Virus genome (UHGV): UHGV-0215671
Strand: one strand, 5' to 3'
Length of the DNA stretch: 13,254 nt
DNA from: a virus
Shown here: positions 10,856 to 12,271 of the stretch, one piece after another
Layout of the letters: every line of letters starts with the position of its first letter
Numbering within the stretch: position 1 is the stretch's first letter
Notes under the pieces: generated by a model
Database searches by the model: none
Told to the model about the DNA's origin: nothing
The model's input: only the letters and a program-made list of their open reading frames with translations
Program-made: the position numbers and the translations under genes

Positions 10856-12271
10856 TTACCAGATGTAACGGTCAATCATTACTGCTTTGAGCATTACGCT
10901 GATTGGGTCAAACTTCTCACCACCAAGCAGAGCTTTTAAAGTGGCTGGAGAGAACCCTGATACCATTGCTACACCATTATCCTTAACAGATACTTCGCAA
11001 GTACCATTACGGTTTGCTAAGTACCAGAATACTAGTTGTGGCATTTCGTATCCAGCTTTTTTGTACTTACTCTGAATTGCTTCAAAGTTTGTACGACCAT
11101 TTGCACCATCAACCTGATTAAACTCCATATCAGAGAAGATGATAAGCTTACTTGGCATATCTTTCTGAGTCAAGTTGTTTCTCTTACCTATCTCAAGAAT
11201 GCGGTCAAAAGCTGCTTGTAAGTTAGTTGAGCCATATTCAACATGACGCATTACCTGACGATGACGGTTTCGTAAATCACCACTCAGTTCGATGAAGTGA
11301 GGGTTTGTTGAATAAACCATTAACTCATTCTTAAAGCAACCTGTATTGCGTTCTGCTACATACAAGGCAAGTGATACACCAATATCAAGGGCAGTGATTG
11401 AACCAAGATTCACCCAAGACATTGAGCTTGAAACATCAGTCATACACAAGATGTTTTCACCCTCTGCCATCCAGTTTGGTAGTGCTTTCCACTGCTCATT
11501 AGCAACATCTGCATTACCATACTTGATAGATTTAATCACATCGTATGGGTAAACAGCACCAGCGTTAATCTCAGCCTCACCTTTTGAGAGGGACTCAATG
11601 TAAGCTTTGTAACGTTCCCCATCTTTACGGTTAAAGAGCTTTTGGTAACGTGCAGCAGCGAGTGAAGGAATCTTGCTGTAGTCAATCTTACCAAACTCAT
11701 TAGCAGAGATTTTTTGCTCAACTGTATCAGACAGTGCAGATAACAGTGTGCGATACTCCTTCTCACTTAAGTTTGCAAACTTACAGAAACGTTTTACAAA
11801 CTGTTTGTGGCGTGGTTTTACTCGTGGTAACCACTTAGCTGCTAAACCTGCTGTTGCAGGGTCTAGTAATGCTGCTTCTAAATGTTTGAAGGCATCTGTC
11901 TCAAAACGAGTACCTACGAAGATTTTGAAGTCATCAAAACGACCAAGCTCTGCAATCTTATCCATAATGCGAAGAACCTGTGTAGGTTCTAAAACTTTAT
12001 CTTCAATCGCTTGAAGTAAAACAGTTCGGAAAGCTTTACGCTCACCCATACCTTCTCTTACATCTCGCATATGCAGTAAAATACGAACTGCAACATCAAC
12101 ATCCTCACGCAAAGCTTTGTAGAACAGGTCTGGTAAGATTTCTACATTGCTACGGCTTGAGCCAGCGGCTTTGTAGAAGTCTACCAGAGCAGACATTGAT
12201 GAAGTATGGTTTACAGCACCATTTTCAGTTCGACCTGCATGAAGGTGTGCATGTTTAAATAATTCGCTCAT
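10856..12271 (-). CDS. Ro60/Rsr-like protein with C-terminal vWA domain, 471 aa
   Basis: ORF track. C-terminal half carries a vWA MIDAS DVSSSM followed by LGSI, then GSTNLQAAF and KLIIFSDMEF; the same succession as recalled for human Ro60 (DVSASM..LGSI, GGTDCSLPM, DVFIVFTDNETF). N-terminal 250 aa helical, size compatible with a TROVE domain. Assignment is from memory. Confidence 0.65.
   Translation of the reverse strand: MSELFKHAHLHAGRTENGAVNHTSSMSALVDFYKAAGSSRSNVEILPDLFYKALREDVDVAVRILLHMRDVREGMGERKAFRTVLLQAIEDKVLEPTQVLRIMDKIAELGRFDDFKIFVGTRFETDAFKHLEAALLDPATAGLAAKWLPRVKPRHKQFVKRFCKFANLSEKEYRTLLSALSDTVEQKISANEFGKIDYSKIPSLAAARYQKLFNRKDGERYKAYIESLSKGEAEINAGAVYPYDVIKSIKYGNADVANEQWKALPNWMAEGENILCMTDVSSSMSWVNLGSITALDIGVSLALYVAERNTGCFKNELMVYSTNPHFIELSGDLRNRHRQVMRHVEYGSTNLQAAFDRILEIGKRNNLTQKDMPSKLIIFSDMEFNQVDGANGRTNFEAIQSKYKKAGYEMPQLVFWYLANRNGTCEVSVKDNGVAMVSGFSPATLKALLGGEKFDPISVMLKAVMIDRYIW

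Follow-up and report, generated by a model that had tools for sequence, protein, structure and literature searches.

Ro60-Y RNA particles are found in animals, some bacteria and a few phages, and their roles have been hard to pin down. This study concerns a candidate phage counterpart of such particles in UHGV virus genome UHGV-0215671, a stretch of 13,254 nucleotides (nt) which is referred to below as the window. The window carries a gene for a 471-residue protein with a predicted Ro60 fold and, downstream of it on the same strand, a tRNA array whose spacers hold four structured RNA elements, el1 to el4, which are proposed here as Y-RNA-like partners of the protein.

Several described systems resemble this locus in part. 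YrlA carries a permuted tRNA-like domain, in the order V hairpin, T arm, acceptor stem and D arm, between a 5' and 3' stem (Chen et al. 2014, PMC4201824), and mycobacteriophage ScottMcG, whose canonical Ro60 gene has a YrlA upstream of it, shows the same order in that RNA. Action on 3' ends together with an exonuclease is established for canonical Ro60-Y RNA-PNPase complexes, and the Ro60 of Thermus phage phiLo attenuates PNPase. The closest described protein is gp130 of Bas63 (Escherichia phage JohannRWettstein). The PhageMaP preprint of 2024 (PMC11482910) described gp130 as structurally similar to Ro60, and noted that it adjoins tRNAs and that "some tRNA genes are possibly Y RNAs". The same preprint reported that deletion of gp130 cripples Bas63 on hosts with the Ppl defence, and that plaques form again on those hosts when gp130 alone is supplied, either from a plasmid or as an insert in T7. 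Ppl is described as a 3'-5' single-stranded DNA (ssDNA) exonuclease, turned on by nucleoside triphosphate depletion and by free 3'-OH ends. In mycobacteriophages, SEA-PHAGES labels members of the family "Ro-like RNA binding protein". In a Listeria phage, HHpred led from CKA15_055 to Rsr, and in the 2 kb upstream of its gene there are three unannotated transcripts of very high abundance, which the authors guess to be Y RNAs (PMC12282133). PhageMaP, SEA-PHAGES and the Listeria-phage study all reached similar readings, so the Ro60-like reading of the protein is not new; for a 98%-identical ortholog it is already published. The two recent papers that called family members Ro60-like both asked where the Y RNAs are. 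The Bas63 preprint proposed annotated tRNAs for this part and identified none of them, whereas the candidates described here are unannotated spacer elements, and they belong to a family that is conserved beside distant homologues.

The open reading frame (ORF) named in the original prediction is a real gene of a Felix O1-type myovirus. It starts with ATG on the minus strand, according to the ORF list and its translation, and the plus-strand frame of the same interval is closed by many stops. It is no chance ORF, because it is kept in 244 Felixounavirus-type records, annotated as hypothetical, "DUF2828 family protein" or "RNA-binding protein", and because the DUF2828/DUF7788 protein family as a whole is present in 710 phage records. 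The gene is 99.7% identical to that of Escherichia phage KEP2. Bas63 gp130 is identical at 461 of 471 residues (98%) and lies in identical synteny, directly upstream of tRNA-Pro, tRNA-Glu and the rest of the array; a synteny comparison found the same array order in Bas63 and in H12. Orthology with the anti-Ppl protein is given by this identity and synteny, and the phenotype is that of the preprint, for gp130 (PMC11482910). The original prediction also placed the gene against a tRNA array, and this is what was found: the stop codon lies 165 nt from tRNA-Pro, the first of 25 tRNAs called by ARAGORN, all on the minus strand, with the ORF upstream in the direction of transcription.

The protein had been read as a vWA protein like Ro60/Rsr, and its four signatures were all recovered from the translation in the predicted order: DVSSSM (aa 279-284), LGSI, GSTNLQAAF (with T349) and KLIIFSDMEF (with D381). 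D279, S281, S283, T349 and D381 are invariant among 47 homologues and form a complete MIDAS motif (metal-ion-dependent adhesion site) of the type DxSxS...T...D. Several arginines and lysines of the helical half are likewise invariant in this set. A search of Pfam with hmmscan matched the protein to DUF7788 (PF25043; 148.8 bits, 1.8e-43, cut-off 27.1), which takes in the vWA region, and to DUF2828 (PF11443; 101.1 bits, 8e-29, cut-off 29), with a VWA_2 match just under its cut-off. Both DUFs were present in 120 of 120 homologues among the matches listed, and PHROG 850 ("RNA-binding protein") matched end to end at 5e-183. The same search of the 471-aa protein found neither TROVE (PF05731) nor vWA_Ro60 (PF25045) at E<=1, while human Ro60, as a positive control, scored 172 and 257 bits on these two models. 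Filing the protein as a Pfam TROVE member was ruled out on this ground; it is a member of DUF2828/DUF7788 and not of Pfam TROVE. The original prediction had named a missing TROVE match, coupled with a better match of the vWA region to an unrelated family, as the outcome that would speak against it. Formally that outcome came about, with the vWA region matching DUF7788. However, DUF2828/DUF7788 is itself a Ro60-fold family and not an unrelated tail or ATPase-associated vWA family.

Sequence comparison beyond Pfam reached Ro60 for part of the chain. A phmmer search of the PDB with the single sequence returned nothing relevant, NCBIfam returned noise only, and the family profile reached Ro60 in the PDB at E=1. 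An hhalign comparison was then made of 47 family members against four phage Ro60 proteins and human Ro60, the last confirmed by Pfam as TROVE plus vWA_Ro60. It aligned the two groups at a probability of 82% (E=1e-5); the 203 aligned columns take in no more than the final helices and the vWA domain, and the MIDAS elements fall on DVSGSM, GGTD and TDNE of Ro60.

AlphaFold2, given an alignment of 47 diverse homologues, predicted a ring of helical repeats capped by the vWA domain, the Ro60 fold along the whole chain, with a predicted local distance difference test (pLDDT) of 89.5 and a predicted TM-score (pTM) of 0.88. When this model was compared with the PDB in Foldseek, the best 12 matches were all Ro60/Rsr/TROVE chains, including the Thermus phage phiLo, Xenopus, human and Deinococcus proteins, over about 520 columns at E 1.6e-8 to 3.5e-6; the matches after them were isolated vWA domains at E about 1e-3. 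The helical N-terminal region of TROVE-like size that had been predicted is borne out in its fold, as this part is all-helical, but not in its size, as it is shorter than the TROVE region of Ro60. Taken from the model, the protein has the Ro60 fold, and it is probably a remote Ro60 homologue.

The candidate RNA partners were recognised by a repeat. The window contains 12 copies of the heptamer GAAGACC where 1.4 would be expected, and four of those on the minus strand head a repeated element (9711-10526) of the form 5'-[4 bp]-AGA-AGACC-NN..yCAGCAA ... NN-GGUCU-G-[4 bp]-3'. These four elements sit 330-1160 nt downstream of the gene, on its strand; they begin 5-6 nt past a CCA end and stop 9-15 nt short of the next tRNA. 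The helices that flank the core covary across copies and orthologs, as UGAC/GUCA, UUGC/GCAA, UUAC/GUAA and GAGC/GCUC; in el2 the outer helix itself alternates between UUGC/GCAA and UUAC/GUAA in orthologs. The flanking helices contain occasional G-U pairs, which are possible on this strand only.

Three of the elements are short, and el4 is long. Its terminal bulged stem bears an AAG...UUACAGCAA / CUG module, and its interior reads, in order, a V hairpin, a perfect T arm (GAAGG-UUCGAUU-CCUUC), an acceptor-like stem (ACUCGGC-AGAU-GUCGAGU), UG and a D arm (GUGU-AAUGGUA-GCAC). The acceptor-like stem has 7 bp and is closed by a tetraloop, and the minimum free energy (MFE) fold reproduces the whole architecture. 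In Mooglevirus and Suspvirus relatives this stem is swapped for two wholly different pairing sequences, which are 100% paired, with double changes at three pairs. By sequence, fold and covariation, el4 therefore has the permuted domain of YrlA. The original prediction had suspected tRNA-like but non-canonical elements in the array, and both el4 and a weak tRNA-Arg-like element (8918-8996) answer to that description. As possible Ro60 sites, CGAA in el1 and GGCGAAG in el4, the latter at the V/T junction, were considered and rejected, since both are unconserved in orthologs.

In Bas63, el3 and el4 lie under the opposite-strand coding sequences (CDSs) bas63_0137 and bas63_0138, and the text of PhageMaP (PMC11482910) holds no data on g137 and g138, which overlap them. 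Short "hypothetical protein" CDSs over el3/el4, on a strand that varies by record, were seen at 20749-21023 of the Bas63 locus (L086; comparison loci are given L numbers) and at 4792-5029 of the H12 locus (L001). They are probably spurious calls on RNA genes. As these cases show, conserved genes that are not tRNAs lie hidden in the tRNA arrays of phages that are well studied, either unannotated or under spurious ORFs.

The elements were then sought beside distant homologues of the gene. A covariance model (CM), R1, was built from twelve Ounavirinae el4 sequences only, and a second, R2, was one iteration on; the search set comprised the window, four canonical Ro60 loci and 68 loci whose homologues are only 39-51% identical. 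R1 gave full-length matches in distant loci, with E down to 4e-13 and all on the gene strand, while true tRNAs gave partial T-arm matches only, at 22 bits or less. With R2, 22 of the 68 distant loci had a match at E<0.01. In 11 of these 22 loci no more than 150 nt separate the gene from the nearest match, and in 18 no more than 1 kb; a randomly placed match would come so close in 2.5% and 17% of cases. Tandem copies fill the 690 nt between gene and tRNA array in L003, four copies precede the gene in the tRNA-free locus L022, and in the GC-rich Mycobacterium phage Kingsolomon a single copy (61.6 bits) follows the "Ro-like" gene at a distance of 99 nt; same-strand pairing of gene and RNA is also seen in P778. 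When 75 kb of Bas63 were searched, the only matches at E<1e-5 were the four elements after gp130. Adjacency to tRNAs was tried as an explanation and rejected: a tRNA or tmRNA lies within 6 kb of the gene in just 23 of 50 distant loci, and therefore the array itself is not the conserved partner.

The matches also support a common structure. Across 40 of them, pairing holds in 89.4% of cells, whereas sliding the partners leaves at most 45%; double changes occur at 35 of 37 pairs, and shuffling lowers the covariation score from 0.467 to 0.124. Because this alignment was fitted to the model, 15 long members were aligned blind to structure with MAFFT and analysed with RNAalifold. The terminal, T, acceptor-stem and D helices came out again, with 19 of 23 pairs compensatory, and MFE folds of two distant members follow the same plan as el4. 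The termini of the 40 matches have the consensus aaG-a-NNNNN-U-n-CAGCAa ... NNNNN-uCuG, in which one G-C pair is invariant in 40 of 40. A structured RNA family is thus shown to be tightly linked, on the same strand, to the DUF2828 gene family. In Rfam matches, annotations and the literature searched, a CAGCAA RNA family coupled to DUF2828 proteins appears to be undescribed.

Altogether, fold and linked RNAs support the Ro60-like reading of this locus despite the failed TROVE membership. We think it probable, though well short of certain, that the gene encodes a ring-shaped Ro60-fold protein (a helical toroid with a vWA/MIDAS cap), a distant relative of Ro60/Rsr, and that the four co-travelling same-strand RNAs, three stem-loop and one YrlA-type, are its Y-RNA-like partners. 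The RNAs would be transcribed with the tRNA precursor and freed by tRNA-processing nucleases, as their position near tRNA ends suggests. Their invariant terminal module would dock on the protein as the Y RNA stem does on Ro60, to which co-inheritance and conservation point. The ring is assumed here to bind single-stranded 3' ends, and the RNA might gate it or tether it to host exonucleases; one outcome may be that the phage is protected from the Ppl 3'-5' exonuclease defence. On this reading the particle would act on 3' ends or exonucleases, and the RtcB, tmRNA and tRNA neighbours in other phages would fit a role in RNA-end handling. A role in RNA surveillance may be part of this, but the one phenotype that experiments have given for the 98%-identical ortholog is counter-defence against Ppl, and the protein alone produces it. 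The RNAs are not essential for anti-Ppl activity, because gp130 alone defeats Ppl in T7, and they would more likely modulate, gate, target or broaden the activity than enable it.

A number of observations weigh against this proposal. On the protein side, the ring shape depends on a predicted model, sequence-level support is confined to the C-terminal half while the N-terminal half is not aligned by sequence, and there is the TROVE and vWA_Ro60 result given above. On the RNA side, neither el4 nor the rest of the window matches the YrlA model RF02553, or Rfam's Y_RNA, at E<=10; the canonical GNCGAAN0-1G motif was not found near the 5' end, where aaG-helix-UUnCAGCAA...CUG stands instead; and with R2 the element was not found in 46 of the 68 distant loci at E<0.01. 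The alignments made by CMs lean to the model, the E-values that CMs give are approximate, and the loci lack phylogenetic independence. In addition, gp130 alone rescues T7, which is without such RNAs, from Ppl (PMC11482910), and the natural phage SP116 (L010) is without most of el4. As to RF02553, it does give full-length matches to family members in L003, L022 and Kingsolomon, at 38-41 bits and E about 1e-5 to 1e-4, and no tested family member reaches its gathering score of 69 bits. The accepted YrlAs beside the canonical Ro60 genes of ScottMcG, Zooman and Stigma score only 29.5-36 bits, and the cut-off is therefore too strict for phage YrlAs.

The rescue of T7 and the state of SP116 would be expected if protein and RNAs were counter-defence tools that work independently and only happen to lie in one accessory region, the protein blocking Ppl alone by capping DNA 3' ends or binding Ppl, and the RNAs serving, like phage tRNAs, as decoys or spare parts against tRNA-targeting nucleases. 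That Ppl acts on ssDNA and is no RNA enzyme agrees with such a division, and a general "RNA island" is suggested by the tRNA or tmRNA genes that about half of the distant loci also carry nearby. However, the elements adjoin the gene even where there is no tRNA (L022, Kingsolomon), the nearest one lies within 150 nt in half of the loci with a match, and the same gene-RNA pairing defines canonical Ro60-YrlA. The strictly conserved non-tRNA module (CAGCAA, the G-C pair and CUG) is without a decoy role and looks like a protein-binding site. We regard independent tools as rather unlikely. The likeness of the helical N-terminus to Ro60 would be superficial if the protein were a generic vWA/MIDAS adaptor, whether an assembly or chaperone cofactor or a virion component, and the repeats processing signals or decayed tRNA genes. 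The unmatched TROVE model, the detection of the probable homologue CKA15_055 in purified virions, the clear tRNA derivation of el4 and the weak tRNA-Arg nearby all speak for it; nevertheless we consider it improbable.

The repeats might also act as DNA: they could be promoters or operator sites, or miniature mobile elements whose termini are inverted. They have some of the right features, as el1, el2 and el4 start with TTGACA- or TTTACA-like hexamers, the termini CAGAAGACC...GGTCTGG are imperfect inverted repeats, and the interiors are AT-rich and variable. But every copy in every phage is on the strand of gene and tRNAs, the G-U pairs in the helices (for example in L012 and L016) would be A-C on the other strand, and the T, D and acceptor arms of the long forms make sense only as RNA. 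The promoter version, suggested by the TTGACA overlap, was rejected, since el3 has nothing like a -35 hexamer, the -10 positions are poor matches and the two halves, 5' and 3', covary. A role as DNA seems very improbable to us, and the proposal of a Ro60-fold protein with Y-RNA-like partners remains the one that we prefer.

Features of the window, and elements of other loci matched by RF01414 (positions without a locus number are those of the window).
Feature	Position	Strand	Basis or remark
DUF2828 + DUF7788 protein with predicted Ro60 fold, 471 aa, Bas63 gp130 ortholog	10856..12271	-	ORF
All-helical, HEAT-repeat-like N-terminal region, about aa 1-265	11477..12271	-	shorter than Ro60 TROVE region
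vWA domain (Pfam DUF7788, aa 275-455), complete MIDAS	10907..11449	-	Pfam, invariant residues, hhalign
MIDAS D279-x-S281-x-S283	11423..11437	-	translation
MIDAS T349	11225..11227	-	translation
MIDAS D381	11129..11131	-	translation
el1, short, spacer tRNA-Glu/tRNA-Met	10443..10526	-	CM R1 38.1, R2 42.7 bits
el2, short, spacer tRNA-Met/tRNA-Asn	10289..10359	-	CM R1 44.2, R2 48.9 bits
el3, short, directly upstream of el4, gap after tRNA-Asp	9856..9943	-	R2 33.7 bits, E=8e-5
el4, long, YrlA-type permuted tRNA mimic, gap after tRNA-Asp	9711..9853	-	sequence, MFE fold, covariation
tRNA array, 25 ARAGORN tRNAs, el1-el4 within promoter-proximal 1.1 kb	5657..10690	-	ARAGORN, Rfam
Sigma-70-like promoter match TTGACA-18-TAAAGT, 40 nt upstream of ORF start	12311..12340	-	consensus scan only
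Two sigma-70-like promoter matches, ORF stop to tRNA-Pro	10717..10837	-	pattern matches only
Short element matched by RF01414	10296..10349
Short element matched by RF01414	L003 9534..9592
Short element matched by RF01414	L003 9619..9670
Short element matched by RF01414	L091 2352..2413
Short element matched by RF01414	L091 2514..2572

The promoter matches in the table belong to a total of sigma-70-like matches that is not above shuffles in the scanned region. Two further spacers on the minus strand fold far better than shuffles: 7829-7924 (z -3.7), which has a 5'/3' terminal stem and contains GAAGACCGUAACA, and 8331-8460 (z -4.4), a long hairpin with a stem of roughly 25 bp. None of the RNA models matched either of them, and 7829-7924 is possibly a decayed fifth copy of the repeat. 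In the IMG/VR copy of Salmonella phage SP116 (L010), a natural deletion at about 8454-8540 fuses el4 to tRNA-Lys, T arm to T arm, and takes out the rest of el4 together with the 5' part of tRNA-Lys. Here tRNA-like arms have recombined with each other, and SP116 can evidently do without el4.

Other observations concern tRNAs and neighbouring sequence. The tRNA-Arg-like element at 8918-8996 (-) is a 26th tRNA called by Rfam only, at 31.7 bits, and missed by ARAGORN. A stretch that resembles an anticodon loop reads CUUCUAA (UCU, Arg), the variable region is unusually long, and related phages carry the element annotated as tRNA-Arg. Near distant homologues, ARAGORN called odd tRNAs at L031 1459-1537, L074 12542-12618 and L070 8919-8994, two of them with 2- or 4-base anticodons ("aa", "cgaa") and one a suppressor-like tRNA-Pyl(cta). 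Phage tmRNA genes lie within 6 kb of the homologue in the metagenomic loci L050, L053, L080 and L084. A 265-aa ORF as listed, at 5831-6628 (-), with weak similarity to a "GTP-binding domain" PHROG, overlaps tRNA-Phe (6582-6657); its PHROG match begins at residue 28, and its true start is probably downstream of the listed one. At the other end of the window there is a perfect 119-nt inverted repeat, 12619-12737 / 13136-13254, whose first arm lies inside a conserved 134-aa ORF (12353-12757, phrog_4114) and whose second arm ends at the last base of the window. It looks like a fold-back assembly artefact at the contig end, or is possibly a real inverted duplication.

The protein family to which this locus belongs is, at 710 phage records, much larger than the known Ro60 particles. 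Felix O1-like, KVP40-like, P100/A511-like and Campylobacter phages that serve in therapy and biocontrol are among its carriers. With a concrete RNA family whose putative docking module is defined and can be mutated, the Y-RNA question can be tested directly, and it is tied to something that can be measured, the escape of the phage from the Ppl exonuclease defence.

Among the described relatives, the Listeria protein CKA15_055 is a probable homologue of the DUF2828 family. Its gene is placed downstream of a tRNA region and upstream of a helix-turn-helix regulator, as is the DUF2828 gene of Listeria phage LMSP-25, where the model gave weak, short matches upstream of the gene at E 0.0015-0.011. 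In the LMSP-25 locus (L094), an RtcB "tRNA-splicing ligase" (6308-7519) lies 1.3 kb downstream of the homologue, an arrangement that echoes the Salmonella rsr-yrlBA-rtcBA operon. The Ro60 of Thermus phage phiLo (PMC12135203; PDB 9l5y) differs in being an annotated TROVE-domain protein with about 15% identity to the window protein, and its RNAs Yrl1 and Yrl2 differ in being CGAA-motif hairpins upstream of the gene with no tRNA-like domain reported (PMC12135203).

The short phage elements have a lookalike in eukaryotes. In the Class I RNAs of Dictyostelium a short terminal stem pairs an invariant 5' G with the C of a 3' CUGU; the 5' strand is followed at once by the motif CCUUACAGCAA, and the interior varies (PMC7919456). 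The short phage forms share the terminal stem, the 5' G and 3' CUG, a (CC)UUACAGCAA after the 5' strand and the variable interior. RF01414 was the recurrent Rfam match, to five independent short elements in three phages, at 23-27 bits, which is under its gathering score of 41.5; the layout is shared, but membership is not supported. The Class I RNAs differ in being Pol-transcribed in eukaryotes and said to be unique to dictyostelids, and their sole named partner is an RRM protein (PMC7919456). The resemblance may be convergent. A bolder idea is that DUF2828/DUF7788 proteins and CAGCAA RNAs form a second ancient ribonucleoprotein lineage of the Ro60-Y RNA type, with its own recognition code, across hundreds of phages of Proteobacteria, Firmicutes, Actinobacteria and Campylobacter and reaching eukaryotes, in which the abundant Class I RNAs would be the cellular counterparts of the short phage forms and would be bound by a DUF2828-type Ro60-like protein. 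This we offer as speculation that is unlikely to hold.

A further comparison is with canonical Ro60/Rsr and its YrlA/YrlB or Yrn1 RNAs, as in Deinococcus, Salmonella and the TROVE mycobacteriophages (PMC4201824). The window protein is missed by the TROVE and vWA_Ro60 models and is about 70 aa shorter, and it shares, in the model, the ring and vWA fold together with the MIDAS. In canonical Ro60/YrlA systems too the RNA gene is on the same strand, from a few hundred nt to 4 kb away, and canonical phage Ro60 genes also lie near tRNAs. The three short elements of the window are comparable to YrlB in that they keep the module and are without the tRNA-like domain. The family model, for its part, matches canonical YrlAs through the tRNA-like domain only and not through the terminal module: the long elements are YrlA-like in architecture and differ from YrlA in the presumed protein-contact motif.

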